Source: Candidatus Aminicenantes bacterium (lineage in GTDB: Bacteria; Acidobacteriota; Aminicenantia; UBA2199). From it: 64,000 nt of DNA. The notes under the pieces are model-generated. The model was not told the DNA's origin and searched no databases. It was given only the letters and a program-made list of their open reading frames with translations. The stretch lies in the NCBI GenBank assembly GCA_011049425.1, contig DSBM01000141.1, positions 62,969 through 126,968 on the forward strand. Direction: 5' to 3'. The position numbers and the translations under genes were made by a program. This document shows, piece by piece, positions 14,236 to 48,701 of this stretch (its first letter is position 1; each line of letters opens with the position of its first letter).

Positions 14236-14314
14236 TGGTAGGCGCGGGCGGGCTCGAACCGCCGACCTCTACCGTGTCAAGGTAGCACTCTAACCAGAAC
14301 TGAGCTACGCGCCT
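14236..14314 (-). tRNA. tRNA-Val (anticodon GAC), CCA encoded
   Basis: The reverse complement folds as a cloverleaf: acceptor AGGCGCG/CGCGCCT, anticodon stem CTACC/GGTAG with loop TTGACAC, T-arm GGCGG-TTCGAGC-CCGCC, 3' ACCA. Confidence 0.85.
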
Positions 14315-20243: not shown

Positions 20244-20340
20244 AAAAAAGAGATCCAGGAGATCCCGGTCACTTGCCGGATTCCCCTTAGTGCTGCTCCC
20301 TCTCGGGCCTGACACGGTTCAAGGCACGGCACCGCCAGGC
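20244..20340 (-). ncRNA. ffs: Signal recognition particle RNA (small 4.5S-type, ffs/scr) with intrinsic terminator
   Basis: Minus-strand reading: AGATCCAGGAGCC...GTGTCAGGCCCGAGAGGGAGCAGCAC...GGGATCTCCTGGATCT + CTTTTTTG. The domain-IV motif matches E. coli GGUCAGGUCCGGAAGGAAGCAGC, and the ends pair into a long helix. Sits upstream of dnaX, as scr does in Bacillus. Confidence 0.7.
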
Positions 20341-20371
20341 TCCTGGATCTCAAGAATGACATAGAGCGCAA

Positions 20372-20458
<87 letters not shown>

Positions 20459-22440: not shown

Positions 22441-24528
22441 TCAATGCAGGTCGCGGCGGTCACGTGCCCTTTTCTCTTCCAGGATCTTTTCCTCTATGGT
22501 GCGCGGCAAGGGATTGTAGTTCAGAAACTCCATGGAATAGTTGGCCCGCCCACTTGACAAAGTCCGCAGTACGGAGGCATACCCGAACATCTCCATCAAG
22601 GGAACCCTGCCCGACAATTTCTGTGAACCCTTGCGGTAACGGCGCATGTTGTCGATGCGTCCGCGACGACGGTTGATGTCACCAATGATATCGCCCATGA
22701 ATTCATCCGGGGTGTTTATTTCGATTTTCATCATCGGCTCCAACAATTGGGCGCCGGCCTTTTTTACCGCCTGCTTCAATGCCTGCTGGGTACATGCGCG
22801 AAACGCCATCTCGCTGGAGTCCACAGCGTGGTACGACCCGTCTGTGAGAACAAAACGCACATTCACCATGGGATATCCGGCCAGCAGTCCTTTGGCCATT
22901 GTATCCACAAAAGCGCGTTCCACCGCCGGAATGTATTCCCGGGGGATATTGCCGCCCTTGACATGGTCCACGAATTCCAGTCCGCCCTCTTCTTTGGGCT
23001 CAAGCCGGAATTCCACGTGGGCATATTGACCGTGCCCGCCGGTCTGCTTTTTAAACTTGTGTGCGTGGCTGACTTCGCGGGTAATGGTTTCCCGGAAAGC
23101 CACCGCGGGTTCTCCCACTTCCACGTCAACCTTGTGCTCCGTGCGCAGGCGATCCACAACGACCTCCAGGTGCAACTCCCCCATGCCGGAAACCACGCTT
23201 TCCCCGGTTTCATCATCAAAGCGCACGCGGAACGAAGGGTCTTCCATGGACATCTTGTTCAGGGCCACGGCCATGCGATCGCGGTCCTTCTGAGTAACCG
23301 GCTCGATTTTCATATCCAGCACGGTGTCGGGCGTATGAATGGCCTCCAACAGGATGGGATGGTCCTCACTGCACAAGGTGTTGCCCGTCATGGTGGACTT
23401 CATGCCGATCAGGGCGCCGATCGATCCTGCGCCCAGGACCTCGACATCTTCACGCTTGCTGGCGTGAATGCGCATGATACGCCCCACTCTTTCCCGCTTG
23501 GCCGTGGTTGAGTTGTAGACGTAGGATCCCGCTTTCAATTCACCCGAATAGACACGGATAAAGGTCTGTTGACCCACGAAGTTGTCGTTGATGATTTTAA
23601 ACGCCAGGGCCGAGAAAGGCCGGTTGGATGCGGGCTTGCGACTTAACGTCTTGACCGGGTCCACCGGATCATGACCCAGGATGATGCCCCGGTCAATGGG
23701 AGAGGGCAGGTAGTCCACCAAAGCATCCAGTAAAAGCTGGATTCCCTTGTTTTTAAAAGCGGATCCGCAGAAAACCGGAGTAATCAACAGGTTCAGCACC
23801 GCGTGCCGAGCGGCGGCACGAATATCTTCCGCTGCGATTTCCTCCTCGTTGAGAAATTTTTCCATGAGCGCATCGCTGAAATCGGCCAGGGTTTCCACCA
23901 ACCGTTCTCTCATCTTGAACGCGGTTTCCCGATATGTCTCAGGTATCGGCACCTCGTGGCGTTCAAGACCGGAGTATTCATGCGCCGTGAGGCTTACCAG
24001 ATCGATGATGCCGTAAAAATCGAGCTCACTGCCCATGGGGAGCTGGAAAGCAATGGCGTTGGCATCCAGCATTTCGTTCATCATGTCGATGGTTTGCAGC
24101 AGGTCAGCACCCTGCCGGTCCATCTTGTTGACAAAGGCGATGCGGGGCACCTTGTAGCGATCCGCCTGGTGCCATACCGTCTCGCTCTGGGGTTCCACTC
24201 CGCCCACGCCGCAGAACACCATGATAATGCCATCCAGCACGCGCAGGGACCGTTCCACTTCCAGGGTAAAATCGATGTGCCCCGGCGTATCGATGATGTT
24301 GATGGTGTGGTCGTTCCAGAAAGTCGTGATGGCCGCGGATGAAATCGTGATTCCACGTTCCTGTTCCTGCTTCATGAAATCCATCACCGCCTGCCCGTCA
24401 TGGACCTCCCCCATCTTGCGCGTGCGCCCCGTAAAAAAGAGCATGCGCTCCGTGGTGGTGGTCTTGCCGGCGTCGATATGGGCGACAATACCGATATTGC
24501 GGATCTTCTGTATCCTGGGTGTGTCCAT
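22441..24528 (-). CDS. fusA: Elongation factor G family GTPase (standalone copy outside an rpsL-rpsG-fusA-tuf operon; EF-G2-like)
   Basis: 695 aa. G domain ([24 protein letters not shown]) plus EF-G domains II-V. Confidence 0.85.
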
Positions 24529-24693
24529 TTATGTTTTTCTCCTGGTCCAGCCCTGTTGCTTGAAACTCGATTCAGCCGCCACGGGAAAACGATTCAAAAG
24601 ATCAATTCTCCGAATGGGGGGAAGAGGGGGAAACCGTGTTCCAACCGCTGAATTATACCAGATTCAAGCAGAAGAGTAAACCGGAAGAAGGGA

Positions 24694-25140
24694 TTATTCC
24701 CCGCGTTGCCCAACACGCGGCAATCCCCGGCGAATAATCAGCAAGGCGGGGATCAGGAGCAGCAGGTCGCGAACAATCAGCTCGATCATTCCGCCAGTGT
24801 GCGTGCCAGCCGTGGTGGTAAAACAGCCGCAATCAATGCTCAAGCCGCGAAGCAGGTTAATTCCCAGCGCGGCGACAAAAACCAGCAAGAGGCCGCCCAA
24901 CAGCAACGCGGCGCCTTGAGCAAACACACCGGCAATCAGGAATATCCCCGCCAAGAGTTCCAGCCAAGGCAGCCAGACAGCCAGGGGGTGGATCATCCAG
25001 GCGGGAATCAGCTGGTAATTGTATAGAATGTCGGCGAAAGCGGCGGGATGTGCGATCTTGTCCAGGCTGGCGTAGATAAAAACACCTCCCAGAAGCAGGC
25101 GGCATACCATCAGGGTCCATTTCCATGTTCGGGTTGTCAC
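24694..25140 (-). CDS. MauE/DoxX-family integral membrane protein
   Basis: 148 aa, four TM helices, CGCF motif typical of MauE/DoxX. 4-nt overlap with the upstream rhodanese gene. Confidence 0.6.
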   Translation of the reverse strand: MTTRTWKWTLMVCRLLLGGVFIYASLDKIAHPAAFADILYNYQLIPAWMIHPLAVWLPWLELLAGIFLIAGVFAQGAALLLGGLLLVFVAALGINLLRGLSIDCGCFTTTAGTHTGGMIELIVRDLLLLIPALLIIRRGLPRVGQRGE

Positions 25141-25637
25141 TTCATGCCTCCCGGGAGTTCAATCCTGTTTCCAGCGGCGCGCCAGCCCTCGATCCCGCCA
25201 TCATAGACCATTACGTCGTGTATCCCCCTGTCTTGCAGCCAGGAAGCCAGAAAAGCCGAATCCAGGCACTCCGGGTCGATGCAATACGTCACTACGGTGA
25301 GACCGGCATTCAGTTCATCCTGAAACTCATCGTAAGCGGACTCTTTGCGGCTGAGCGGCAGGTTCCGCGCTCCGGGGATGTGTCCAATCCGGTAAGCCGA
25401 TTCTTCCCTGGCATCCACCAGCAGCACCATGTCCGCTTCCATCAACGCTTTCAGGGTATCCAGGTCGATCCTTGAGATATCGCGCAAAACGGCTTGCTCA
25501 ACCTCAGGCTGCGGCTGATAGGCGGTGGCCAAGGGCAAGCCCTGATTGCGCAGGGCGTTGACCACCAGGGCGACCACCAGGCCGGCAACAAGGATCAAGA
25601 GCGTTTCGAGCAGAGTGCGACTGACAAAACGTTTCAT
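25137..25637 (-). CDS. Rhodanese-domain protein with N-terminal signal/anchor
   Basis: Rhodanese fold with active-site loop (VVTYCIDPECLDS...) and an N-terminal hydrophobic helix. Confidence 0.75.
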   Translation of the reverse strand: MKRFVSRTLLETLLILVAGLVVALVVNALRNQGLPLATAYQPQPEVEQAVLRDISRIDLDTLKALMEADMVLLVDAREESAYRIGHIPGARNLPLSRKESAYDEFQDELNAGLTVVTYCIDPECLDSAFLASWLQDRGIHDVMVYDGGIEGWRAAGNRIELPGGMK

Positions 25638-25740
25638 ATCAGACCATATTCTACGGTACCATCCGGATCATGTCAAACGGTACATCCAGCCCGGCCGATC
25701 GAGGTATGGGAGAACCCATACCTCGACCGCGCTTGTTTAC

Positions 25741-28700
25741 TCAGCTTTTCAGGACGTTGATTTCTTTTTTGGGCACGCGGGAGAAGTAGGTGTAGAGGAT
25801 GGGAACCACGAACAGGGTGAGCAGGGTCGATGCCAGCAGCCCGCCGATCAGGGCGATGGCCATGGGCGAACGCATGGCTGAGCCTTCGCTTGTGGACAGG
25901 GCCATGGGCAGCATGCCCAGGATGGTCGACAGGGCGGTAATGAGAATGGGGCGCAACCGCACCACCGCTCCCTCGATGACGGATTCCAACGTATCTGCGC
26001 CTTCGCGGATCAATTGATTGATGTAGTCTACCATCACGATGCCGTTGTTGACCACGATGCCGGCCAGCATTACAAAGCCCATGATGGAAGGCAGGTTGAC
26101 GTTTTTTCCGGTAAGGGCCAACAGCACGGCGGTTCCGATAAACGCCAGCGGAATGGTAAACATGATGATAAAGGGGTACTTGAAGTTCTCGAACTGGGAC
26201 GCCATGACCGCATACACCAGCACCACGGCCAGCAACAGGGCCAGCAGCATGGTGGAAAACGCTTCTTTCATATCCTTGAACTGGCCGCCCATCTCTGAAA
26301 AATAGCCTTCCGGCAGGTTGCCGATAATGGGACCGGCCGCTGCCATGATGTCGCCTACCACCCGGGTCAGATCCCGGTCAACGTAGTTGGCGGTAACACT
26401 GACTTTGCGTACCTGGTTCTCGCGGTTGATGCGCACAGGGCCGGTAGAACGTACGAAATCGGCCACTTGGCCCAGGTAGACTTTGCCGCCCGCGGGGGTC
26501 ATGATGGGCAAACCGCGCAAGTTGTCTACTGTGGCCCGGTCGTGTTTACGAATGCGTACGCGGATATCGCGTTCCTCGCCTTTCAGGTGCATGCGACTGG
26601 CCACGGTGCCAATGGTCATGGCGCGTACCTGGCTGGAAACATCGAAAGGCGTCAGGCCCAGGCGTGACAGTTCTTCTTTTCTGAGCAACAAGCGCATCTC
26701 GGGTTTGCGTTCCTCCATACTGGTCTGCACGTCGCGAATCCCTTCGACATTTTTAATGGCATCGGCCACACGATGGGTCAGGGAATCCAGAACATCCAGA
26801 TCACGCCCGAAAAAGGCAAACTCAATGGGGCTGGTTGAAGTGCCCATCATGGCGGAGCCCATGTTGATCGATTGCACGCGGCCTTTTTCCAGGTCCGGGA
26901 AATGACGCCGCCACTCCTCCAGGATCTGTTGGTCCGAAATATCCCGTTCACTGCTGGTCTTCAGGAAAGCAAATAAGATCGCTTCGTGTGAACCTGCAGC
27001 GCTCATTTCCGAGGCGCCGCCGCTCTCACTGTCATCCGCCCCGACCTGGACCATGGTGGAGATCACATTCGAATCCTTGATGGCCTGTGATTCCACGTAC
27101 CGGATCACGCGATCGGTCTCGGCAAGGTTCGTGCCGACGGGCATACTGACTTTGAGCAGAATCATATTCTGATCACTCTGGGGCATGAACTCACCGCCGA
27201 GATTTGCCGCTAGAACAATAGACAACGCGAGCAGAATCACGGTGGAAACAACCACAATGCGCCGGCGGCCCAGGGCCCAGCGCAACCGGACGCGGTACCA
27301 TTCCCTGGCCTTGGCAAAGTGTTTGCGGCCCAGGTCAACGGTTTTGCTGCCGGTGCCATGGCCGGTTTTAAACAGCCATGAAGCCAACAACGGGATAATG
27401 GTCAGGGCCACAAAGAGTGATGCCAGCAGAGAAAAAGACACCGCCACGGCCAGTTCCCGCGACATTTCCCCCGACATGCCTTGCGAAAGCGCCATGGGGA
27501 AAAACACGGCGATGGTGGTCAGGGTGGAGGCGATGATGGCAGTGCCCACTTCCGAGGTGCCGATGCGGGCCGAATCAAAGGGAGACTTCCCGGCTTCAAG
27601 GTGACGGAAGATGTTTTCAATCACCACCACGGCGTTGTCCACCAGCATGCCCACCCCCACAGCCAGGCCGCCCAGTGTGATCAGATTCAGGGTGAACCCG
27701 GACAGGTACAGGGCGATAAAGGTAACGATTACGGAAAGGGGAATGGCGATGCCGATGGCGATGGTGGGCCGCAGATTGCGCAGGAAAAGAAAGATCAGCA
27801 ACATGGCCAGGATGCCGCCCACAACAACCGTATTGGCACTCTTGCTGACCATGCGCTCGATGATATCGGAAAAATCCATGCCGATGGAAAATTTCAGGTC
27901 CGGATCCAGCGTGGGCTTGATCTCTTCAAGGGCCTGCTTGACACGCCTGGCCACAAGCACGGTGTTGGCGCCGGAGCTTTTTGTAACAATGGCGTGAACG
28001 CCTTTGGTGCCCTGCACGCGTGCCAGGTTGCGGATCTCCTTGTGGGTCTCTTTTACCGTAGCGATATCTCGCAGGAATACCGGTTCACCGCGGCGTCCGG
28101 CACCCACCATCACCCCGCCGATCTCTTCAACCCTTTTGAACTCACCCAGGGTGCGGATGAGATATTCACCGTGACGTTCATCGATATAGCCGGATGGCAG
28201 GTTGATATTGGACGCCTGGATGGCAGCCACTACCTGGGTGATGGACAACCTGCGGGATTCGAGCTTACCCTTTTCCACGTTGACCAGTACTTCCATCTCT
28301 TCCGGAGAAAACACCACTACCGAAGCCACTCCGTCCAGCCTTTCCAGGCGCGTGGCAACCTCCTCATCGATGTAATCCTTCAGGTCAATCAGGTCGCGTT
28401 TGCCTCCGGTAATGCCATACATCAGGATGGGCATATCGGCGAAATTAAACTTCACCACCATGGGTTGACCGGCATCCGTGGGCAGGTATCGCTGAAACTG
28501 GCCGATGCGGTCACGGATATCCTGGGCGGCAAAATCCAGGTTTGTTCCCGATTCAAACTCCACCATGATGGTGGAAATCCCTTCCTGCGATATCGAGTTC
28601 AATTGCTTGACGTTGCTGACCGTGGCGATCCATTGTTCCATCGGACGGGTGACGCTTTCCTCGATATCTTCCGAAGATACCCCGGAATAAGAAGTCACCA

Positions 28701-28839
28701 CCGAAACGTAGGGGCTGTCGATATCCGGCAGCATATCGAGACCCAGTCCGGAAAAAGCCATATAGCCGAAAATCAGGATCACCGCCACCACCATGGTTAC
28801 CGTGACCCTGTGGCGCAATGAGAATTCAACGATCTTCAT
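25741..28839 (-). CDS. RND multidrug efflux permease (HAE1/AcrB family)
   Basis: 1032 aa, 12 TM helices, two large periplasmic loops, AcrB-like throughout. Confidence 0.9.
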   Translation of the reverse strand: MKIVEFSLRHRVTVTMVVAVILIFGYMAFSGLGLDMLPDIDSPYVSVVTSYSGVSSEDIEESVTRPMEQWIATVSNVKQLNSISQEGISTIMVEFESGTNLDFAAQDIRDRIGQFQRYLPTDAGQPMVVKFNFADMPILMYGITGGKRDLIDLKDYIDEEVATRLERLDGVASVVVFSPEEMEVLVNVEKGKLESRRLSITQVVAAIQASNINLPSGYIDERHGEYLIRTLGEFKRVEEIGGVMVGAGRRGEPVFLRDIATVKETHKEIRNLARVQGTKGVHAIVTKSSGANTVLVARRVKQALEEIKPTLDPDLKFSIGMDFSDIIERMVSKSANTVVVGGILAMLLIFLFLRNLRPTIAIGIAIPLSVIVTFIALYLSGFTLNLITLGGLAVGVGMLVDNAVVVIENIFRHLEAGKSPFDSARIGTSEVGTAIIASTLTTIAVFFPMALSQGMSGEMSRELAVAVSFSLLASLFVALTIIPLLASWLFKTGHGTGSKTVDLGRKHFAKAREWYRVRLRWALGRRRIVVVSTVILLALSIVLAANLGGEFMPQSDQNMILLKVSMPVGTNLAETDRVIRYVESQAIKDSNVISTMVQVGADDSESGGASEMSAAGSHEAILFAFLKTSSERDISDQQILEEWRRHFPDLEKGRVQSINMGSAMMGTSTSPIEFAFFGRDLDVLDSLTHRVADAIKNVEGIRDVQTSMEERKPEMRLLLRKEELSRLGLTPFDVSSQVRAMTIGTVASRMHLKGEERDIRVRIRKHDRATVDNLRGLPIMTPAGGKVYLGQVADFVRSTGPVRINRENQVRKVSVTANYVDRDLTRVVGDIMAAAGPIIGNLPEGYFSEMGGQFKDMKEAFSTMLLALLLAVVLVYAVMASQFENFKYPFIIMFTIPLAFIGTAVLLALTGKNVNLPSIMGFVMLAGIVVNNGIVMVDYINQLIREGADTLESVIEGAVVRLRPILITALSTILGMLPMALSTSEGSAMRSPMAIALIGGLLASTLLTLFVVPILYTYFSRVPKKEINVLKS

Positions 28840-29918
28840 GGCTTTTCTCCGGAAATACGGATCGGCGCTCCGTCAGTTAAATCGTAGTTACCGTCCACAA
28901 CCACCTGGGCGCCGGGCTCCAAGCCTCCGAGTACCTCGAAATAGGTCTCGTTACGTAGCCCGACCTGGATGCGGGTGAGGCGGGCAAAGCCGTTGTCGTA
29001 CACAACCACCCGGTCTTCGCCGATCAGCGCCGACAGGGGTAACATGAAAACGTTTTCGATTTTTTCCACTTCAATGGCGACGGCGGCGAATACCCCCGCC
29101 TTGATCGCCATGTCCGGATTTTCGACACGCACCTCTACCTGAAAGGTCTTGGAAGCCGTGTCCGCGGCCAGGGTTTTGGTGTAAATCGTTCCGGTAAACA
29201 TGCGGTCTGCCAGCGTACTCACTTTCACTGAACAGGGCATGCCCACAGAGATCTTCTCGATATCTTCGGCCACAACGTCGATTTTCACTTTGACACGGCT
29301 CAGATCCATGAGGGTCAATACACCGAAACCCCCTCCCATCTGAGGATTGATCATGTCGCCCTCATCCAGGTGACGGGCGGTGATGATGCCGTCAAAAGGC
29401 GCGCTCATACGGGCCGATTTCAGGTGGTGCCGCACCAGGTTCAAATTTGCCTCTGCGCTCTGTTTCTGGGTCAATGCGGATTCCAGGGCCAGTTCAGCTT
29501 TTTCCAACTGCATGCTGGAAACGGCGTTGCGTTCATGCAGTTTGCGCATGCGCTCGGCATTGACGCGGGCATCTTTCAATGCCGCACCAGCTATGGCCGC
29601 GGCGGCGACTGCCTGCTTCCGCTGCAGTTCCAGGCTGGTCGTATCCAGCTCCGCCAAAAGTTGGCCGCGCCGAACCGTATCGCCCTGTTTGACCAGGATG
29701 CGTTCCACCCGTCCGGACACATCGGGAATAATGCCGGCCTGCTTCCAGGGCATCACCGTTCCCGTATAGTTCAGGACCCGGGTGAACACACCTTTCTGCA
29801 CCGGAGCCACCGCCACGTTGATGGCCAGTTTCTCCGGTCCCGTCTGCTCCTGCTTATCCGGACCGCAGGCCGCGGCCAACAGCGCCGCGGCCACAACCAC
29901 TATCATGCGTTTTTTCAT
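28836..29918 (-). CDS. RND efflux periplasmic adaptor (membrane fusion protein, lipoprotein)
   Basis: Lipobox LAAAC, alpha-hairpin and biotinyl/lipoyl-like barrel domains. 4-nt overlap with the RND gene. Confidence 0.85.
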   Translation of the reverse strand: MKKRMIVVVAAALLAAACGPDKQEQTGPEKLAINVAVAPVQKGVFTRVLNYTGTVMPWKQAGIIPDVSGRVERILVKQGDTVRRGQLLAELDTTSLELQRKQAVAAAAIAGAALKDARVNAERMRKLHERNAVSSMQLEKAELALESALTQKQSAEANLNLVRHHLKSARMSAPFDGIITARHLDEGDMINPQMGGGFGVLTLMDLSRVKVKIDVVAEDIEKISVGMPCSVKVSTLADRMFTGTIYTKTLAADTASKTFQVEVRVENPDMAIKAGVFAAVAIEVEKIENVFMLPLSALIGEDRVVVYDNGFARLTRIQVGLRNETYFEVLGGLEPGAQVVVDGNYDLTDGAPIRISGEKP

Positions 29919-31246
29919 TGCTCTCCTCCCTTGAGACTGACTCCCGTCAGTTTTTCCAGTTCAGTGGCCGCAACCGTGTAATTGTACATTGCCTGCAAGC
30001 GGGCGACTTTCGCCTGGGTCAGGCTGTTGTATGACGCATTCAGTTCCAGGATCGTAATCATCCCCTCTTCATAATTCAACTCAGCAATACGCACACCCTC
30101 CTGTGCGGTTTCCACACTTTTTTCCGCGCTGAGGATATTCTGGTATTCCTGCTCCAGGGTCAAGCACAGGTTCTGGATCTGAATGCGGGTGGCTTCATCC
30201 AGTTCTTCTGCCTGCATGCGCAGGGTCTTGTTCAGCACCCGCAATTCCCCCACTTGACCACTTCTTTTCAAGCCCGTGAAAATCGGCAGGCTGATTGAAA
30301 GGTTGATGGTGTAATAATCATTCCAGTTTCCCTCGACAAAGCGGAAGGCATTGGAACGGTAGTTGTACTGAGCCACAATGGAGAGGTCTGGCAAATAGGC
30401 GGCATAGGCAATCTTCAGCAGATTGGCCGCCTTGCGGCGCTCCAATTCCAGTTGACGGATTTCCGAGCGGTTTTGCAAAGCCGCCCGGATCAACTCCGCC
30501 TGGTCCACGTTGATCTGTTGAAAACTCAATTTTCCCGTTGCCCGTACTTCGGTTCCCGGTGCAAGGCCCACGACATGCCTCAGATTTTCCCGCGTAAGGC
30601 GGATCAATTTGCGCACATTGAGCAGGTCCGGCTCCGTGGCGCGGAGATTGAGTTGCGCGCGCAACAGGTCATATCTTGAGGCCATTCCCAGCTCATTTCT
30701 GACCGAAACGTTTTTCAAGTTCCGTTGCGCCAATTTTCGTGCTTCCCGGTGGGCTTTTTCCAACTCGTTCAGCACCAGCAGGTTGTGAAACGTCTTGGTG
30801 ACATTCACCACCAGTTCATCCCGCCCGGCCTTTACTTTCTCCTGGGACATTTCCACATCCAGGCGCGCGTTCCGGAATGTATGCCAGATCTTGCCTCCGG
30901 TAAATACGGGTTGCACGATCTGAAAGGTGAACTCGTAATCCATGGTAAAGTCCAGAGTAACCTCGGTGGGCTCCCCACCGGGAACCATGGAGGGCATTTC
31001 CAGTACCATCAGTTTTTCGTCCAGGTTCTTTGCCCCGGACAAGTTCACTTTCGGAAGAAAACCCAGGTTCTGGCGCAAACGGAATTTGGCCATGCGCACT
31101 TCCTGACGCTGAATCTCAAACCCGGTATTGTTCTCCAGGGCCATTTTGAGAGCCTGGTCCAATGTCAATTCCCTGGTTCCGTCGCCGGCGGCGACCGGAC
31201 CGGCGAGAATTCCCACTAAGATCAAGAGCCACAACCATCGTTTCAT
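29915..31246 (-). CDS. TolC-family outer membrane efflux protein
   Basis: Signal peptide (MKRWLWLLILVGILAGPVAAG) and duplicated OEP repeats. Start set at the ATG at 31246, which has an AGGAGG RBS (ORF extends to 31273). Confidence 0.8.
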   Translation of the reverse strand: MKRWLWLLILVGILAGPVAAGDGTRELTLDQALKMALENNTGFEIQRQEVRMAKFRLRQNLGFLPKVNLSGAKNLDEKLMVLEMPSMVPGGEPTEVTLDFTMDYEFTFQIVQPVFTGGKIWHTFRNARLDVEMSQEKVKAGRDELVVNVTKTFHNLLVLNELEKAHREARKLAQRNLKNVSVRNELGMASRYDLLRAQLNLRATEPDLLNVRKLIRLTRENLRHVVGLAPGTEVRATGKLSFQQINVDQAELIRAALQNRSEIRQLELERRKAANLLKIAYAAYLPDLSIVAQYNYRSNAFRFVEGNWNDYYTINLSISLPIFTGLKRSGQVGELRVLNKTLRMQAEELDEATRIQIQNLCLTLEQEYQNILSAEKSVETAQEGVRIAELNYEEGMITILELNASYNSLTQAKVARLQAMYNYTVAATELEKLTGVSLKGGEQ

Positions 31247-31298
31247 TAGTACCTCCTCAATTGCCTGAATCATCCATCACTTTAGCTGTTTCGCGGAA

Positions 31299-40053: not shown

Positions 40054-40806
40054 ATGGAAGGTTTTAAACAGTTTGTTTACAGTTACTCTAAAGGCGACAT
40101 CATCTTTACCGAAGGGGATGAGCAGAACCACTTCTACATCATCAACTCGGGCCGGGTTCAGTTGAAACTCAACCGCAACAACCTGATCCTCATTTCCCTG
40201 GGCAAAGGAGACTTTTTCGGTGAAGAAAGCCTGAACGACGGCCAGGAAGCCATGTTTACCGTTGAGGTCATGGAAGATGCTTCCATAATAAGGATCCCCT
40301 ACTCCGCCCTGGTGGAGATGATGAAGAAAAGCCGGGAGATCTCACTGAAAATCGTGAAAAAACTTTCCGAGAAAAACCTTAAGATTCTGGAATACCTGTT
40401 TCAGATGAAAGGACAAGACATCACCAGTGACGAACAACCCGCCTCAGAATCGCTTGAAGAGGACAATCAGGACCTGCTGGATCCGGCCATCCAGGCATAC
40501 CTGGTGATTCAACGTTCCAACCGGGTGGTGCAACTCACGCATAAGACCACCTTTCTCGGGCGCCGCGACTACACCAGCGGCTTTACACCCGATATCGACC
40601 TGACCAAGGAAGATGAGGAAAAATACATCTCCCGCAAACACGCCAAGATCCAGTTCACCAACGATCGGTTCTACATTTCAGAGGAGCCCGGTGCCATTAA
40701 CGGCACGTTTATCAACGGGGAAAAAATGAAGACCGGGGTTAAGTACGAACTCAACAACGAAGATGAACTTACCCTCTGCCACCTGAGTTGTGTGTTTAAG
40801 GCCTGA
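40054..40806 (+). CDS. Cyclic-nucleotide-binding (CAP effector) domain fused to a C-terminal FHA domain
   Basis: N-terminal cNMP-binding beta-barrel (GDIIFTEGDEQNHFYIINSGRV...GKGDFFGEESL), an acidic linker, then FHA (GRRDY..., SRKHAKI, AINGTFINGEKM). Confidence 0.7.
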   Translation: MEGFKQFVYSYSKGDIIFTEGDEQNHFYIINSGRVQLKLNRNNLILISLGKGDFFGEESLNDGQEAMFTVEVMEDASIIRIPYSALVEMMKKSREISLKIVKKLSEKNLKILEYLFQMKGQDITSDEQPASESLEEDNQDLLDPAIQAYLVIQRSNRVVQLTHKTTFLGRRDYTSGFTPDIDLTKEDEEKYISRKHAKIQFTNDRFYISEEPGAINGTFINGEKMKTGVKYELNNEDELTLCHLSCVFKA

Positions 40807-41663: not shown

Positions 41664-41785
41664 GTGTTCAACTCCCAATGCGATTATACGCTATGCGCTA
41701 TCCGGCCTCAACCGCGACCGCATCCGTTGTGGATCCGTTGACACCATCGGGACAATCATGCTAAAATGCCCACTTCGGAGGCATT

Positions 41786-41992
41786 ATGAAGAAAGAAATT
41801 CATCCCGAATATATGGAATGTACCGTCACCTGTGCTTGTGGCAATACCTTCAAGACCCGGGCCACGGTCAAAGGGATCGAAGTGGAAATCTGTTCCAGTT
41901 GTCATCCCTTCTATACGGGCAAGCAGAAATACGTGGATACAGAAGGCCGTATCGAGAAGTTCAAGAAAAAGTATGGCTACAAGGAGCAATGA
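41786..41992 (+). CDS. rpmE: 50S ribosomal protein L31 (zinc-binding type)
   Basis: MKKEIHPEY...CxC...[12 protein letters not shown]. Confidence 0.9.
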
Positions 41993-43097
41993 CACCCTTC
42001 TCTCTTGTCTGCACAACCTTTACGAAAAAGCGCAAGCCCTGACGCAGCGCCTGGCGGAAATGGATGTAACCTCCAATTCCGAAAATTTCCGCAACCTCTC
42101 ACGCGAGTTATCCCGGATCAAACCCGTAAGCGATCTGTACCTGGATCTGCGCCGCTATGATAAAGAGCGTTCCGAAGCCCTTGAAATGGCGAAAATCGAG
42201 GATGACCCGGAGATGGCTTTACTGGCACGTAATGAAGTGGACGGACTGGATGAAAAAATCTCGGAACTCACAATCATGGTCCGCCGCTTGCTGGTTCGGG
42301 ACGCGGCCGCGGATCACCGCAATGTCTATCTGGAGATTCGCGCCGGCACCGGGGGTGATGAGGCCTCCCTCTTTGCCGCGGATCTGTTGCGCATGTACCA
42401 CCGTGTGGCGGAACGCCGCCACTGGAAGGCCGATGTCATCTCCACCACCTACTCCTCCATCGGCGGCATCAAGGAAGTGATTCTGCACTTGCGTGGTAAT
42501 GACGTATACGGTCAACTCAAGTTCGAAAGCGGGGTACACCGCGTACAACGGGTTCCGGCAACCGAATCCAGCGGACGCATCCACACATCAACCGCCACCG
42601 TGGCCGTGCTGCCTGAAGTGCGCGATGTGGAAGTCACCCTTAATCCCGCGGATGTCCGCATTGACACGTACCGGGCTTCCGGAAGCGGAGGACAACACGT
42701 CAACAAAACCGAATCCGCCATCCGCGTCACCCATTTTCCCTCGGGAATCGTGGTCACCTGCCAGGACGAGTCTTCCCAGCACAAAAATCGTGACAAGGCC
42801 CTGGCCGTACTCAAATCCCGCCTGTACGAAGAGGAGATGCGCCAACAGGAAGAGGGGATTGCTCTGGATCGTCGCGCACAGGTGGGTTCCGGTGAACGTT
42901 CCGAAAAGATCCGCACCTACAATTTTCCCCAGAACCGTGCCACGGATCACCGCATTTCCGGGCGAAACTTCAACCTGGAAAGCGTCCTGGACGGCAACAT
43001 CAGCGACCTTCTGGCCGCACTGGCCGGCCGCCATGAAGAGCGGGTCCTGCAACAGCGATTCCGCGAACTCTCCGCACCGTGCGCTACGGAGAACTGA
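41973..43097 (+). CDS. prfA: Peptide chain release factor 1
   Basis: RF1 motifs (PAT tripeptide, [18 protein letters not shown]). Start placed at the ATG at 41973, overlapping the rpmE stop. The ORF-track start at 41832 is an in-frame upstream extension across rpmE. Confidence 0.9.
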
Positions 43098-43906
43098 TTG
43101 CCGATGCCCTGTTGAAAGGGAGTCAGGCGGGAATCAAGCCACTCGATGCTGAGCTCCTGCTTTGCGACGCCTTTGCAATTTCCCGCGGCCGCTACTGGAC
43201 AATCCGCCCGGATGAGATCACGGATAAGCAAGGTCAGAAACGCTTTTCCAGGAATCTGCGGCGGCTTTTACGGGGTGAGCCGCTTTACTATATCCTCAAG
43301 AAACGCGAGTTCTTCTCACGCAGTTTCTGCGTGGATCGCCGCGTGCTGGTTCCGCGACCGGAAACGGAAACCCTGGTTGAGCAGGCCCTGGCCCGCATCC
43401 GTCCCAAAGACACTATTCTCGATATCGGCGCCGGTTCCGGTTGTGTTTCAATCACCCTGGCATTGGAAGCGGATGTCCGGGTGACCGCCCTGGAGATTGA
43501 CCGGCGCGCCCGGCGCCTGTTGCAATGTAACCTTGATCGATTCAGGGTTGAAACGCGGGTCCGTGTCTGTGGGGGAAACCTTTTCCCCCGCCACGGCGGA
43601 CCCTGGCGGATGATTGTGGCCAACCCGCCTTACTTGAGTAGTCAGGAATACCACGCCCTGCCAAAACATATCCGTGGGTTTGAACCGCGGAGGGCCCTGG
43701 TTGGCGGTCATGAAGGCACGGAAATCCTGCATCGTATCATACACGGCTCCCATTCCAGAATCCATCCCGGCGGATGGCTGCTGCTGGAAACCGGATACAA
43801 CCAGGCGCGAGGCATCGCGCAGGAGATGAAGGCACGGGGCTTCCACGACATTCAGATCATCCCGGACCTTGCCGGCATTGAACGCGTGGTGATGGGGCGG
43901 CATTGA
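43079..43906 (+). CDS. prmC: Release factor glutamine N5-methyltransferase PrmC/HemK
   Basis: SAM-binding (LDIGAGSGC) and NPPY motif (VANPPYL). Confidence 0.85.
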   Translation: MRYGELIADALLKGSQAGIKPLDAELLLCDAFAISRGRYWTIRPDEITDKQGQKRFSRNLRRLLRGEPLYYILKKREFFSRSFCVDRRVLVPRPETETLVEQALARIRPKDTILDIGAGSGCVSITLALEADVRVTALEIDRRARRLLQCNLDRFRVETRVRVCGGNLFPRHGGPWRMIVANPPYLSSQEYHALPKHIRGFEPRRALVGGHEGTEILHRIIHGSHSRIHPGGWLLLETGYNQARGIAQEMKARGFHDIQIIPDLAGIERVVMGRH

Positions 43907-45231
43907 ACGTTCTTTTTCTGACTCCCTATATCACCGATTTCTCGGCTTATGATCTCTGGCTTCGCCCGCTCGGGCTCATGCAACTGGCGGCTGTGGTTAA
44001 ATCACGTACCAGTTGCCGCGTATTCTGGCTCAATCCCCTGGACCGCTACGCCGGTCTCGAGAATCTTTACGACCCGGATGACGGTCGCGGTCATTTTTAC
44101 CGCTCCCCTATTGCCAAACCGCAATGTTTTCAGTCCATCCCCCGCTTTTTCGCGCGCTACGGCTGGCCGCTGACTGTTTTTGACGCATACCTGGAAACCC
44201 TCCCGCCAATGGACATGATCTGCATGACCACACTCATGACCTATTGGGTGGACGGGGCGAGCTTCACCCTGGACAGGCTGCGCCGGCATTCCCCGGATGC
44301 GGTTACGGTCGTGGGGGGCATCCTGCCTACGCTGATGCCGGCTGCAAGCAAGCGCGAAATCAGGGCCGATTATTATATCTCCGGCCCTGGAGAAAACTTG
44401 CTGCTCAAGCTTATTCAGCGCATCGGCGGGCGCAAATTATTTAAACCCCGACCATCCCGCATCCGCATTGAAGATTTCCTCTCTGCTGCTGATCCCGCCT
44501 ATCCCTTGCTGACTTCACGGGGATGTCCCATGCAGTGCAGTTATTGCGCATCCCGCTTGCTGAATCCTGAATTCAGTGAACGCCCGGTATCCGCGGTCAT
44601 TCGCGAAGTCCGTAGCGCTCGTCGGTCTCGCCGCCATTTCGTTTTTTTTGATGACGCCTTACTGATCAACAAAGAAAGCCGATTTCTGCCACTGGCCCGG
44701 GCCGCGGCGGAGATGAATTTGTGTCTGCATACACCCAACGGCCTGCATGTGCGCGAAATCGATTCCGTTAGCGCCCATGCCCTGCGCAATGCAGGCACCC
44801 GCACCCTGCGCCTGAGCCTGGAAACCACTTCATGCGACATCCACGTCCGGGATTCCAACAAGGCGGACGCAGATACCATGCGCCGGGCCGTTGATCACCT
44901 GCTGGAAGCCGGTTTCTCTGCCGCAGAGATGGAAACCTACGTATTGTGGGGTTTGCCGGGACAATCGCTCGATTCCGTGCACGCCACCCTGGATTTCGTG
45001 GAAAACCTGGGCATCATCCCCCGCCTGGCGGATTACTCGCCTGTTCCGGGGACCCCGGATTGCATCCGCCTGCAAGATTCCGGGCGCCTGGGCAGATCCC
45101 TGGATCCCCGCCATACCAACAAGCTCTTTCACCTGCTGCAAACCAGCGGCTACTCCGGCAGCGATATCCGGGCGGTGCGCACCCGCTGCAGAGGGATCAT
45201 TTCCAGAGTTCGCAATTGCCGTTCCTGTTGA
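43903..45231 (+). CDS. B12-binding-domain radical SAM protein
   Basis: N-terminal cobalamin-binding Rossmann-like region, CxxxCxxC cluster (SRGCPMQCSYCAS). A TTG start overlaps the prmC stop (TTGA). Confidence 0.7.
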   Translation: MNVLFLTPYITDFSAYDLWLRPLGLMQLAAVVKSRTSCRVFWLNPLDRYAGLENLYDPDDGRGHFYRSPIAKPQCFQSIPRFFARYGWPLTVFDAYLETLPPMDMICMTTLMTYWVDGASFTLDRLRRHSPDAVTVVGGILPTLMPAASKREIRADYYISGPGENLLLKLIQRIGGRKLFKPRPSRIRIEDFLSAADPAYPLLTSRGCPMQCSYCASRLLNPEFSERPVSAVIREVRSARRSRRHFVFFDDALLINKESRFLPLARAAAEMNLCLHTPNGLHVREIDSVSAHALRNAGTRTLRLSLETTSCDIHVRDSNKADADTMRRAVDHLLEAGFSAAEMETYVLWGLPGQSLDSVHATLDFVENLGIIPRLADYSPVPGTPDCIRLQDSGRLGRSLDPRHTNKLFHLLQTSGYSGSDIRAVRTRCRGIISRVRNCRSC

Positions 45232-45250
45232 TTTCGGTTATGAATGAGAT

Positions 45251-46738
45251 ATGGTGATCCAGATGCGTTCCAAATCCTTGCACGGTTTGAAAAGAAAACC
45301 ACCCCAAAAACCAACCGGCCCATTGATTGCGTGTTTTTTTGTGATCCTTTCGTTTTGTACTCCCTGTCCGGGTAAGGCTGAAGGCCGTGTTCAAACACTT
45401 TTTCGCATCGGCCCCGAGCATTACGATGTGTCCGTAGAGGTCTTTCCCGACCAGGGTTTCCTGCAGGCCAACGCGGCCATCCGCCTCTTCCTGGAGCAAC
45501 CCGCGTCACCGACCCTCTCGTTCTTTCTGCACCAGACCTTCCGCATCGACGAGCTGGCCCTGAACGGGCGCAACATGCCTTTCTCCATGACCCCCGCCCC
45601 ACCGGAGAAACTGTACCCCGCACGCCAGCGCGTGGACATCCAATTAAACAGAGAAACGGGCACAACGTCACGGATCGACCTCTTCGTGCGCTACAGCGGC
45701 GTGCTGAAAAAACTTCCGCAGTGGGGTTTAGCGAAGCCGGGCAAATTATCAATGGACGACACCATTGGACCTGAACGGGTGGAGTTGGCCGCCTATTCAG
45801 GCTGGCATCCCCAGTGGCCGGGACGCCATTGGTTCAGCCTGAAACTCGAAATTATCGCCCCGGATAACTGGAAAGTCATTGCCTCGGGAGAAAAAACCGG
45901 TACCCGTTTGAAAGAAAACAGAATTCACACCACATGGGAGTCCGCGCGGGACCACGACCTGGTGGTTGTGGCCTCTCCGGATTTCAAGGAAATTCAGGTG
46001 CCCGCGGGCAGTGATTTCGGTATCATTTCAGTCTTGCACACCCGCTTACCTGCTGATTTTGTGAATCGCGAAGCCCGTGAAATGGCGCGGGCACTGGAAT
46101 ACCATACCCAATGGCTCGGCCCTCCCCTGCACGCGGGAACCAGCCTGCGTCATGTCTACTCTCCCCGTGAAAAGGGTCAGGGCGGCTACTCCAGGCCGGG
46201 ATTGATCATCTCTTCAGAGGGACGCATCAGCGCCGCCCTCGAGTCCCGCCCGGCGCTTTCCTTTATACGCGGCAATGCCCACGAATTGGCCCACTTCTGG
46301 TGGAATTCCGGCCGTGGCCAGGCGGACTGGATCAACGAAGCTTTCGCGGAGTATTTCTCACTGCTGGTCCTGGAAGCCGCCGGAAACGCCATGGACTCTG
46401 CCGCCTACTTAAAAAGTTGCGAAGAGCAGGTCCGCAATCTACCGCAGAGTGCCGGTGCACTGTCAAAAGTTCCGGCAGACAATACCGGGCATAACCATGT
46501 GATCCGTTACTGCCAGGGAGCGTTGATGCTGCACCATTTTCGCAGCCTGATGGGCGATGAGGCGTTTTTTGCGGCCTGCCGCCGCTTTTACCTTGAATTC
46601 AGGGAATCAGGCGCAGAAACGCAGGATTTCCGCGACTTCTGGAGCCAACAGAAAGGCATGGACTCAACCACGGTGAATCGCTGGCTGGATACACCCGGAA
46701 GCGGTCTTATGCCTGTTCTGGAAACCGCAGAAAAATAG
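45251..46738 (+). CDS. Secreted HEXXH gluzincin metallopeptidase (M1-like, no GAMEN motif seen)
   Basis: Signal peptide. HELAH...18 aa...NEAFAEY arrangement typical of M1/gluzincins. Confidence 0.5.
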   Translation: MVIQMRSKSLHGLKRKPPQKPTGPLIACFFVILSFCTPCPGKAEGRVQTLFRIGPEHYDVSVEVFPDQGFLQANAAIRLFLEQPASPTLSFFLHQTFRIDELALNGRNMPFSMTPAPPEKLYPARQRVDIQLNRETGTTSRIDLFVRYSGVLKKLPQWGLAKPGKLSMDDTIGPERVELAAYSGWHPQWPGRHWFSLKLEIIAPDNWKVIASGEKTGTRLKENRIHTTWESARDHDLVVVASPDFKEIQVPAGSDFGIISVLHTRLPADFVNREAREMARALEYHTQWLGPPLHAGTSLRHVYSPREKGQGGYSRPGLIISSEGRISAALESRPALSFIRGNAHELAHFWWNSGRGQADWINEAFAEYFSLLVLEAAGNAMDSAAYLKSCEEQVRNLPQSAGALSKVPADNTGHNHVIRYCQGALMLHHFRSLMGDEAFFAACRRFYLEFRESGAETQDFRDFWSQQKGMDSTTVNRWLDTPGSGLMPVLETAEK

Positions 46739-46799: not shown

Positions 46800-47399
46800 A
46801 TGGAGCAAATAGTCAAACAAATGGTGCATATGCTGGGGAAAGGGGACAGCCTTTCCAATTTAAGCAAAACCATCGGGGGATCACCGCGGGCGACCCGTTC
46901 CGCCCTGGAGCTTGTATTGCCCTCGATGATCCATGCCATGAACCGCAATACCAACAGCCGTGACGGCGCCGGTTCCCTGCTCAATGCCTTGAAACGGGAT
47001 CATGACGGCAGCATCCTTGAACGCCTTGGAGAAGCCATATCCAGACCGAATGAAAGCGCCGGCATGGGAATCCTGGGGCACCTGTTCGGATCCAAAACCA
47101 GGGCGGTGGAATCCGGCGTCGGCCGCGCCACGGGCCTGGACACAGGGCAGATCACCCGCCTTATGGTCACCGTGGCCCCGATTGTACTGGGATTGCTGGG
47201 CAAACTCCGCAACCAGAAAAACCTGGACAGCGACGCCCTCAGCAAACTGCTGGGAAGAGAGGATGAGCAGGTGCGGCCGCGGACAAAAAAACGCCTCTCT
47301 CCCCTGTTGCAGTTTCTGGATCAGGATGGAGACGGGGATATCAGCGGGGAAGTCATTCAGATCGGCACGGGATTGTTGGGACGACTGTTCAAACGCTAA
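46800..47399 (+). CDS. DUF937-like hypothetical protein
   Basis: 199 aa, Gly/Leu-rich repeats resembling the DUF937 (YidB-like) family. Confidence 0.4.
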   Translation: MEQIVKQMVHMLGKGDSLSNLSKTIGGSPRATRSALELVLPSMIHAMNRNTNSRDGAGSLLNALKRDHDGSILERLGEAISRPNESAGMGILGHLFGSKTRAVESGVGRATGLDTGQITRLMVTVAPIVLGLLGKLRNQKNLDSDALSKLLGREDEQVRPRTKKRLSPLLQFLDQDGDGDISGEVIQIGTGLLGRLFKR

Positions 47400-47428: not shown

Positions 47429-47866
47429 ATGGGATTGTTTGATTTTATCAAAGATGCAGGCAAAGCCATCGGTTTGGTTAACGAACCCGGCGCGGGTGAG
47501 CGCCTGGTTAAAGAGATCCGTTCTCTGGATCTGGATGTGGAAGATCTTTCCGTGAATTTTTCCGATGGTTTGGCAAAAATTTCAGGCCGCGTAAAAACCC
47601 AGGAAATGCGCGAGAAGGTCATTCTGGCCGCCGGCAATGTGGCCGGGGTTGAAAAAGTCGACGACAACCTGACAGTCGAACAGGAATCCCCACAGGCGCT
47701 GTTTCACACAGTCGTGCGCGGCGACACGTTATCAGCCATTGCCAAACAGTTTTACGGCAATCCAATGAAGTACATGGTGATTTTTAAAGCCAACCAACCA
47801 CTGCTCAAGGATCCGGATAAAATTTATCCGGGCCAGGTCCTGCGGATTCCCGAAGTCAAAGACTGA
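47429..47866 (+). CDS. kbp: BON + LysM domain protein (potassium-binding protein Kbp/YgaU-like)
   Basis: Strong similarity to E. coli YgaU over the full length (MGLFDFIKDAGK...; C-terminal LysM ...KIYPGQVLRIPE). Confidence 0.8.
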   Translation: MGLFDFIKDAGKAIGLVNEPGAGERLVKEIRSLDLDVEDLSVNFSDGLAKISGRVKTQEMREKVILAAGNVAGVEKVDDNLTVEQESPQALFHTVVRGDTLSAIAKQFYGNPMKYMVIFKANQPLLKDPDKIYPGQVLRIPEVKD

Positions 47867-48002: not shown

Positions 48003-48031
48003 TTGACACGCGCACACATCCCCCGTATAAT
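48003..48031 (+). promoter_or_regulatory. Consensus sigma70 promoter (TTGACA-17 bp-TATAAT) for the DUF134-NifX gene
   Basis: Perfect -35 hexamer at 48003-48008 and -10 at 48026-48031 with a 17-bp spacer, 29 nt upstream of the ATG at 48060. Confidence 0.6.
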
Positions 48032-48059
48032 GTGCATATGCTCAAAATAAAGGCTCTCC

Positions 48060-48701
48060 ATGGGTCGTAGAAAAAAACACCGCGCCTGCAGGCTGCTGCA
48101 ACGGGACCACATTATCGGTCCCACTTCAGCCAAAGAAGTGTGCGGCGTTGCGCTCATGGAAGCCGATGAATTCGAGGCGTTGCGGCTGTGCGACCTCGAC
48201 AACTGCAACCAGACCGCGGCGGCGGCTATTATGAATGTCTCCCGGGCCACGCTTCAGCGTTTGCTGCGAACCGGGCGCCGTAAAATGGTGGCCGCCTTGC
48301 TGAATCATTACACCATTCGCATCAAAGGAGAAACCCACATGAACATCTGTATTCCCACTGTTGACAACAAGGGCCTGAAATCAACGGTAAGCCCCCATTT
48401 CGGTATGGCACCCTATTTTACCCTGGTGAACAGTGAAACCATGGAAACCAGGGGGATTGTGAACGAACGCATCGATCACAACCAGGGCGCATGCAAACCC
48501 CTGGCCGGACTGGAGAATCATTCCGTAGACGTACTCATTGTATCCGGAATGGGACATCGCGCCATCGCGCGTTTGGCCGAATCCGGGACGCAAGCCTTCC
48601 TTTTTACCGGCAATACCGTGGCGGAAGCGCTCAAAGCCTGGCGGGCGGATGAACTTCAGTCTTTAACCCCGGATGCGGCCTGCAGCGGACACGGACGTTG
48701 A
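48060..48701 (+). CDS. DUF134 (UPF0251 DNA-binding) domain fused to a NifX/NifB-like dinitrogenase FeMo-cofactor-binding domain
   Basis: N-terminal DUF134-like HTH (EFEALRLCDLDNCNQTAAAAIMNVSRATLQRLL); C-terminal PF02579-like domain (APYFTLVN...VDVLIVSGMGHRAIARLAESG). Confidence 0.65.
   Translation: MGRRKKHRACRLLQRDHIIGPTSAKEVCGVALMEADEFEALRLCDLDNCNQTAAAAIMNVSRATLQRLLRTGRRKMVAALLNHYTIRIKGETHMNICIPTVDNKGLKSTVSPHFGMAPYFTLVNSETMETRGIVNERIDHNQGACKPLAGLENHSVDVLIVSGMGHRAIARLAESGTQAFLFTGNTVAEALKAWRADELQSLTPDAACSGHGR

Follow-up and report, generated by a model that had tools for sequence, protein, structure and literature searches.

A predicted class-B-type radical SAM gene closes the rpmE-prfA-prmC operon in one lineage of Candidatus Aminicenantes

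The DNA studied here, hereafter the window, is a stretch of 64,000 nucleotides (nt) from a Candidatus Aminicenantes bacterium (contig DSBM01000141.1 of GenBank assembly GCA_011049425.1, positions 62,969 to 126,968), in which the genes for ribosomal protein L31 (rpmE), release factor 1 (prfA, RF1) and the release factor methyltransferase PrmC (prmC) are followed by a gene for a radical S-adenosylmethionine (SAM) enzyme, called rSAM in what follows. Judging from its layout, we predict that rSAM is co-transcribed with prmC, translationally coupled to it and the terminal cistron of the operon in one Aminicenantes lineage; its product appears to belong to an undescribed family that matches no curated one. 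The operon arrangement is unreported and lineage-restricted, and the enzyme is uncharacterised and of a known class. It should be borne in mind that class-B radical SAM enzymes perform chemically difficult methylations and that most of their thousands of sequences have no known substrate. The linkage to prmC hints at a modification tied to translation termination, without proving it. The elements of the operon are as follows, numbered from the first letter of the window:

41738-41767, plus strand: promoter-like site, TTGACA-18-TAAAAT with a TG extension (consensus scan only)
41786-41992, plus strand: rpmE, ribosomal protein L31, 68 amino acids (aa), cistron 1 (PF01197)
41973-43097, plus strand: prfA, RF1, 374 aa, with GGQ and PAT motifs; overlaps rpmE by 20 nt
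43079-43906, plus strand: prmC, release factor N5-glutamine methyltransferase, 275 aa, with an NPPY motif; overlaps prfA by 19 nt
43903-43906, plus strand: TTGA start/stop overlap of prmC and rSAM, predicted translational coupling
43903-45231, plus strand: rSAM, class-B-type radical SAM gene, 442 aa, cistron 4 (PF02310 and PF04055)
44524-44547, plus strand: CPMQCSYC codons (Cys208/212/215), putative [4Fe-4S]/SAM cluster motif

The promoter-like site just upstream of rpmE is the likely start of the operon, and a scan of the window revealed no convincing terminator within the gene series from rpmE onward; Rfam searches returned neither a cobalamin riboswitch nor any other element near the operon. 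The product of prfA is identified as RF1 because the GGQ and PAT motifs are present. The prmC of the window encodes a genuine housekeeping release factor methyltransferase: its product scores 230.5 bits with TIGR03534 (cut-off 199.1) and matches the PrmC N-terminal domain PF17827, and its N182-P183-P184-Y185 motif is invariant. As the original prediction, made by a model from the sequence alone, had proposed, rSAM opens with a TTG codon lying inside the prmC stop (...CAT TGA AAC...), the TTGA at 43903-43906 being common to both genes. This start is supported by the alignment of all homologues' N-termini there, the motif M-x-[VIL]-L-[FL]-x-[NT]-P-Y-I being found at the same position in every relative. 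Sitting at the end of the rpmE-prfA-prmC operon and translationally coupled to prmC, rSAM would thus be made together with RF1 and its methyltransferase.

The linkage recurs well beyond the window. A scan restricted to one genome per species gave 80 loci among the matches listed; among these, rpmE-prfA-prmC-rSAM is found in each of the 22 genome loci where rSAM shares 39% identity or more with that of the window, and in none of the loci below 39% is prfA or prmC present. One metagenome locus also has prmC followed by rSAM. The prmC-linked proteins form one clade in a neighbour-joining tree (for which no support values were computed). A 4-nt NTGA start/stop overlap between prmC and rSAM is present in 13 of the 22 related genome loci; in most of the others, the two genes are 1-9 nt apart or overlap by 20 nt. 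At locus L019, the spacer reaches 93 nt and holds a tandem AATGATG repeat (aatgatgaatgatgaatgatgaatgatga, L019:7914-8000); at L008, what looks like a small inserted element, a 1.5-kb cassette with a 73-aa open reading frame (ORF) and a GH18 (chitinase-like) ORF, separates prmC from rSAM (L008:2603-4125) and is flanked by copies of a GGTACCGTCCC-containing sequence. Genes upstream of rpmE and downstream of rSAM vary among the linked loci, and RF1 is only 54-59% identical to that of the window in most of them, which argues that the block outlasted a divergence that reshuffled the surrounding synteny. A convergent gene comes next after rSAM in at least 12 of 21 loci, so that rSAM is the last cistron there.

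As a control, we picked 80 prmC loci from metagenomes with a generic PrmC motif: rSAM was found only in L082, whose PrmC is the closest (48% identical), and it was absent after prmC in all 52 other control loci having at least 1 kb of downstream sequence. Submitters have labelled the linked loci with conflicting taxa (Aminicenantes, Acidobacteria, Omnitrophota, Chrysiogenales and "Clostridia"); these loci are taken as a single lineage because their L31 proteins are 76-96% identical and their flanks are shared. Conservation of the prmC-rSAM linkage, which the original prediction had singled out for checking, therefore holds at every orthologous genome locus and at the metagenome locus, but within one lineage, and near relatives do without the gene. 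The literature that we searched describes no radical SAM enzyme with a B12-binding domain linked to prmC/hemK or to baeRF-1, and, apart from one passing mention, holds nothing on radical SAM enzymes of Aminicenantes; in their survey of release-factor families, Burroughs and Aravind (2019) link baeRF-1 to a hibernation factor and report no pairing with a radical SAM gene (PMC6514570).

On the protein side, Pfam places a B12-binding domain (PF02310, 35.1 bits, cut-off 32.1) and a Radical_SAM domain (PF04055, 53.7 bits, cut-off 29.5) on rSAM and nothing else, with no SPASM, RRE, TRAM, PUA or THUMP domain. A Rossmann-like B12-binding-type domain spans about aa 1-175, the radical SAM core about aa 200-370, and a helical region forms the C-terminus; a family-specific insertion in the Rossmann domain, at about aa 44-104, reads LDRF...DGRGKF.RE...KP...PR.YARYG. 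The single CxxxCxxC cluster (aa 208-215) is CPMQCSYC, invariant in 32 relatives and providing their sole invariant cysteines. Many radical SAM structures can be superposed on the modelled core, and sequence and fold searches of the PDB returned only generic class-B and methylthiotransferase neighbours, AprD4 being the top structural one. We thus read rSAM as a class-B-type radical SAM enzyme with one predicted [4Fe-4S]/SAM site and no auxiliary cluster, in agreement with the N-terminal cobalamin-binding domain and lone cluster recognised in the original prediction. The long ORFs of the family (529-749 aa) are upstream read-through artefacts, not domain fusions; the only real fusion found, P0502 (611 aa), joins a C-terminal MerR-type helix-turn-helix (HTH) domain (PF13411, aa 540-596) to the B12-binding-type domain and gives no clue to the substrate. 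Isoelectric point does not separate the clades of the family.

No curated family accommodates this protein. Its best NCBIfam match is TIGR04072 (62.1 bits over aa 123-369, cut-off 360), followed by P-methyltransferases, BchE, HpnJ, AprD4 and MiaB/RimO, all far under threshold; the methyltransferase models PhpK (44 bits), Sden_1168 (53), TsrM-type (18), HpnR (17) and TIGR03975 (19), the last for C-methyltransferases of ribosomally synthesised peptides with post-translational modifications (RiPPs), all fall far below their cut-offs too. With Pfam and NCBIfam, the window rSAM and three members of other clades reached no equivalog, their matches being 3- to 40-fold under the cut-offs. A profile search of 1.84 billion representatives returned 853 proteins at E ≤ 1e-30 versus 20,300 at 1e-10, the picture of a compact putative family of about 850 clusters at 50% identity inside a generic class-B cloud. 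Its members are spread over anaerobic phyla, namely Aminicenantes, Desulfobacterota, KSB1, Marinimicrobia, Deferribacteres and Calditrichota.

Several known enzymes come near enough to be named. The classification by hidden Markov models suggested at the outset brought up no housekeeping family: the MiaB/RimO/MtaB methylthiotransferases were rejected, as TIGR00089 scores 23.4 bits for a cut-off of 251 and as RimO and MiaB combine an N-terminal UPF0004 domain carrying a Cys triad with a C-terminal TRAM domain, whereas rSAM has neither a conserved triad nor TRAM. The diol dehydratase AprD4 acts on an aminoglycoside, works without cobalamin and is not a methylase. Since it has the same domain and fold as rSAM, the fold does not guarantee the use of B12, nor does any sequence motif tell cobalamin binders apart; with its model (NF033070; PDB 6FD2), rSAM scores 23.7 bits for a cut-off of 500. 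The methyl-coenzyme M reductase (MCR) glutamine C-methyltransferase MgmA/QCMT (PDB 9CCB) is archaeal, tied to MCR and without release-factor context; this candidate was rejected as well, the window rSAM having a bacterial genome context and no match to TIGR04014 (cut-off 360) at E ≤ 0.01, a model that gives 26.8 bits on a Desulfobacterales member of the family. TIGR04072 itself is the "lipid biosynthesis B12-binding/radical SAM protein" associated with ladderane lipids, whose genomic context and N-terminal motifs differ from those of rSAM. In the proteusin clusters of polytheonamide and aeronamide, the PrmC-fold amide N-methyltransferase PoyE/AerE and the B12 radical SAM C-methyltransferases PoyB/PoyC/AerC act on the same polypeptide target (PMC9060474). 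The likeness to the window lies in a PrmC-fold N-methyltransferase and a cobalamin-type radical SAM protein being encoded together; unlike these clusters, the window has a housekeeping prmC that overlaps prfA, and no precursor, epimerase or leader protease.

What, then, might the enzyme do? Our leading proposal, which we hold tentatively and consider likelier to be wrong than right, is that rSAM may be a cobalamin-dependent radical modifier of a component of translation termination, with RF1 as the first candidate. As in characterised class-B enzymes, SAM would be reductively cleaved at the [4Fe-4S] cluster to yield a 5'-deoxyadenosyl radical, which would abstract a hydrogen atom from an unactivated substrate carbon, and the radical thus left on the substrate would most likely be quenched by methyl transfer from methylcobalamin. 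The substrate would be a macromolecule of the translation (termination) apparatus, and RF1 is encoded two genes upstream; the operon would then supply a release factor and a pair of SAM-dependent modifiers, with PrmC carrying out N5-methylation and rSAM a radical C-modification that would be accessory and not essential. We favour a substrate in the termination apparatus because the coupling persists through shuffled flanks, a second release-factor-type neighbourhood exists, there are protein-directed class-B precedents such as MgmA, and PrmC-fold and B12 radical SAM enzymes are paired in proteusin clusters.

The second neighbourhood concerns a sister clade, also in Aminicenantes, whose rSAM proteins are about 35-38% identical to that of the window. 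In 18 of the 21 loci with enough upstream sequence, the gene is divergent from a 381-aa eRF1-like gene (baeRF_family10 and eRF1_3) 190-950 bp away; a GWxTD-domain gene lies 3' of rSAM, and a TetR-OEP-MFP-RND efflux operon on the other side. The loci of this kind are:

L021, L024, L025, L027, L028, L030, L035-L037, L039-L041, L047, L048, L054, L066 and L165: sister-clade rSAM with the eRF1-like gene (example, L041:6291-9323)

No assembly is found in both the prmC-linked (about 23) and the baeRF-linked (about 25) sets, among the matches listed and keeping in mind that metagenome-assembled genomes (MAGs) are incomplete, and the two clades may thus represent alternative single copies rather than co-resident paralogues. 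Two placements beside release-factor-type genes are unlikely to arise by chance. A more ambitious version of our proposal, in which the family would modify class-I release factors by a previously unknown radical reaction (C-methylation or similar), the prmC-linked clade acting on RF1 (or RF2) and the sister clade on or with baeRF-1, strikes us as unlikely; if true, the termination factors of these lineages would carry a second, cobalamin-dependent modification beside the N5-methylglutamine made by PrmC. The window itself contains, at 22441-31273 on the minus strand with the TetR gene upstream, a TetR-OEP-MFP-RND operon of the same content and order as in the sister-clade loci, followed by genes for a rhodanese, a MauE/DoxX membrane protein and an EF-G paralogue (22441-24528); tblastn detected no eRF1-like gene anywhere in the window.

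A number of observations weigh against a termination substrate. Its support is of one kind, genomic context, rSAM is a putative rather than an established cobalamin enzyme, and the likeness to MgmA is generic. The prmC-rSAM linkage appears limited to one Aminicenantes lineage, and the sister clade comes from the same lineage as the prmC-linked clade. The link to the eRF1-like gene is soft: in the MAG CAZRGM01, that gene stays with the RND efflux operon, whereas a different contig carries rSAM. We dropped the idea of a shared "GGQ glutamine" target, as the aligned catalytic loop, which mostly reads EGGWEGYESKR, lacks Gln in 17 of the 19 eRF1-like proteins; GFGSQ occurs only in the eRF1-like proteins of L031 and L033, where the gene is 5.8 kb away. 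Across all clades, 57 positions are conserved, the insertion included, and the prmC-linked clade has only 8 of its own; such family-wide conservation points to the same type of substrate in Desulfobacterota and other phyla, where no release-factor gene lies nearby. Around the approximately 35 members outside Aminicenantes, no release-factor or ribosomal family is among the 25 commonest of 147 neighbour families.

The most direct objection comes from near relatives in which the gene is cleanly lost. Reached through RF1 proteins of the 367-aa length class, the loci L162-L164 compare with the rSAM-bearing L020 at 81-83% identity for RF1, 82-85% for PEPCK and 75-84% for an AMP-binding enzyme, with the same gene order on both sides, and their prmC is followed after 10-215 nt by a convergent hexapeptide-transferase gene, with no trace of rSAM. 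The stretches compared are:

L162:7104-8041, L163:7104-8158 and L164:1649-2703: prmC without rSAM
L020:3068-5266: corresponding stretch with rSAM

PrmC is only 60-63% identical between L162-L164 and L020, below the values for RF1, PEPCK and the AMP-binding enzyme, and the L162 PrmC is 308 aa long. Because such close relatives with the same synteny have no rSAM, the gene must be accessory, RF1 and PrmC being able to work without it. In the comparison of RF1 sequences, no residue separates the lineages with rSAM from those without. A tie to translation termination, as the original prediction had suggested, thus stays a live possibility through the conserved linkage, and is weakened by the confinement of that linkage to one lineage whose near relatives share the synteny and lack rSAM.

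Other substrates have to be weighed against the termination apparatus, beginning with a tetrapyrrole or another cofactor. Outside Aminicenantes, the recurrent neighbours of the family are an AhbA/B-like gene of the siroheme decarboxylase family, an IF-2B/MtnA-like isomerase, an M17 aminopeptidase, and a 1470-aa HdrA-like oxidoreductase with recR and ybaB; some of them could be support functions, such as reductant supply, 5'-deoxyadenosine salvage or corrinoid handling. In the Desulfobacterales loci L046, L056, L057, L064, L068, L070, L072 and L079-L081 (example, L046:2899-9326), the isomerase and the AhbA/B-like protein are encoded 5' of rSAM, and a leucyl aminopeptidase of family M17 is encoded 3' of the family member in five loci of this order. 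In loci of the Desulfomonile/Syntrophaceae type, the family member sits between recR-ybaB and the HdrA-like multidomain oxidoreductase.

These neighbours invite the idea that rSAM is a hitch-hiker performing BchE-like chemistry on a tetrapyrrole or corrinoid, placed behind prmC for constitutive expression. The AhbA/B-like gene (AsnC_trans_reg2 with a NirDL-like HTH) is directly upstream on the same strand in 10 of the approximately 35 non-Aminicenantes loci, all 10 in Desulfobacterales and some only 6-10 nt away, and BchE is the top NCBIfam match of such a member with 87.9 bits, although this is far under the cut-off of 481. The active-site-type residues common to all clades and the dispensability of rSAM in near relatives would also suit a cofactor role; however, neither the prmC-linked nor the baeRF-linked clade has a tetrapyrrole gene nearby, the AhbA/B-like protein could instead have a regulatory role or handle the corrinoid that the enzyme itself uses as cofactor, and it is left unexplained why the 4-nt coupling to prmC is conserved when the flanks are shuffled. 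We regard this idea as rather unlikely.

Membrane lipids are an improbable target in our view. In such a scheme, rSAM would be a cobalamin-dependent methylase, or another radical modifier, of membrane lipids of a kind common in anaerobic sediment bacteria, in keeping with TIGR04072 being the best NCBIfam match, with the weak matches to HpnJ and HpnR, with the spread of the family over anaerobic phyla and with the isoprenoid and phospholipid genes ispD, uppS, cdsA and dxr upstream in the window. Yet the TIGR04072 match reaches only 62 bits for a cut-off of 360, those upstream genes are not kept with the block at other loci, and no lipid gene recurs beside any clade. Methylation of rRNA or tRNA near the peptidyl-transferase or decoding centre would explain the placement in a translation operon without making RF1 the substrate; we know of no class-B radical SAM enzyme that acts on RNA, however, and the lack of a detected RNA-binding domain (TRAM, PUA or THUMP) in rSAM and the absence of the gene from near relatives leave this option hardly probable either. 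The remaining probability goes to other substrates, none of which we can name.

Downstream of rSAM, three co-directional genes lie outside the conserved unit:

45251-46738, plus strand: M1-like gluzincin, predicted to be secreted or membrane-anchored; lineage-specific
46800-47399, plus strand: DUF937 protein
47429-47866, plus strand: BON/LysM protein

The peptidase ORF begins 19 nt past the rSAM stop (the public gene call begins at 45263). Its product carries a hydrophobic segment near the N-terminus (aa 21-40) and an HELAH motif at aa 344 (nt 46280-46294), followed by WINEAFAEY; the spacer from HELAH to WINE is 14 residues, versus the canonical M1 arrangement of HEXXH-(X18)-E plus GAMEN, and no GAMEN-like motif was found in the protein. 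PF01433 scores 37.2 bits and covers only profile positions 72-210 of 218, and the aminopeptidase N model gives 35.5 bits for a cut-off of 591. The gene thus encodes an M1-like gluzincin and not a canonical aminopeptidase N, which agrees with the earlier description of a GAMEN-less, signal-bearing gluzincin closely following rSAM.

Among the 22 related loci, an M1-like peptidase follows rSAM in L002 only (rSAM 77% identical to that of the window); L003 (69% identical) has none, and its rSAM is followed by the DUF937 gene. The DUF937 and BON/LysM genes are found 3' of rSAM only in these closest relatives, L002 and L003. No conserved small ORF was detected within 1.5 kb 3' of rSAM across 21 orthologues, the only ones in common being shadow ORFs of near-identical loci, and the absence of a precursor peptide gene noted at the outset thus extends to the relatives. 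The peptidase is most simply read as an unrelated passenger. A RiPP-like pair, also put forward in the original prediction, in which rSAM would modify a small peptide that the secreted peptidase processes, can draw on the adjacency of the two genes in the window and in L002, on the M17 aminopeptidases of the five Desulfobacterales loci and on the PrmC-fold/B12 radical SAM pairs of proteusin clusters; it fails because only one relative has the peptidase and no small ORF is conserved, the next gene being convergent in most loci, and, with no SPASM or RRE domain in rSAM and a genuine release factor methyltransferase encoded beside prfA, we rejected it as highly improbable.

Should a release factor or some other part of the termination machinery prove to be the substrate, a radical, cobalamin-dependent modification would be the first of its kind there; with an unrelated substrate, the operon would be a clean example of a conserved, translationally coupled partner misleading guilt-by-association. 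Loci of the L020 and L162 types provide a natural presence/absence pair for comparison.

Elsewhere in the window, a protein with a cyclic-nucleotide-binding domain and a C-terminal FHA domain is encoded at 40054-40806 (plus strand), between uppS and ispD, and is conserved in L002, L003 and L019. The co-directional series begun at rpmE ends with a DUF134 and Nitro_FeMo-Co (NifX/NifB-C-like) fusion gene (48003-48701, plus strand), preceded by a perfect sigma-70 consensus, TTGACA-17-TATAAT. On the minus strand, Rfam identifies a bacterial small SRP RNA (20250-20348) adjoining a tRNA (20372-20458), with dnaX-ybaB-recR beside them, and a further tRNA at 14239-14314.

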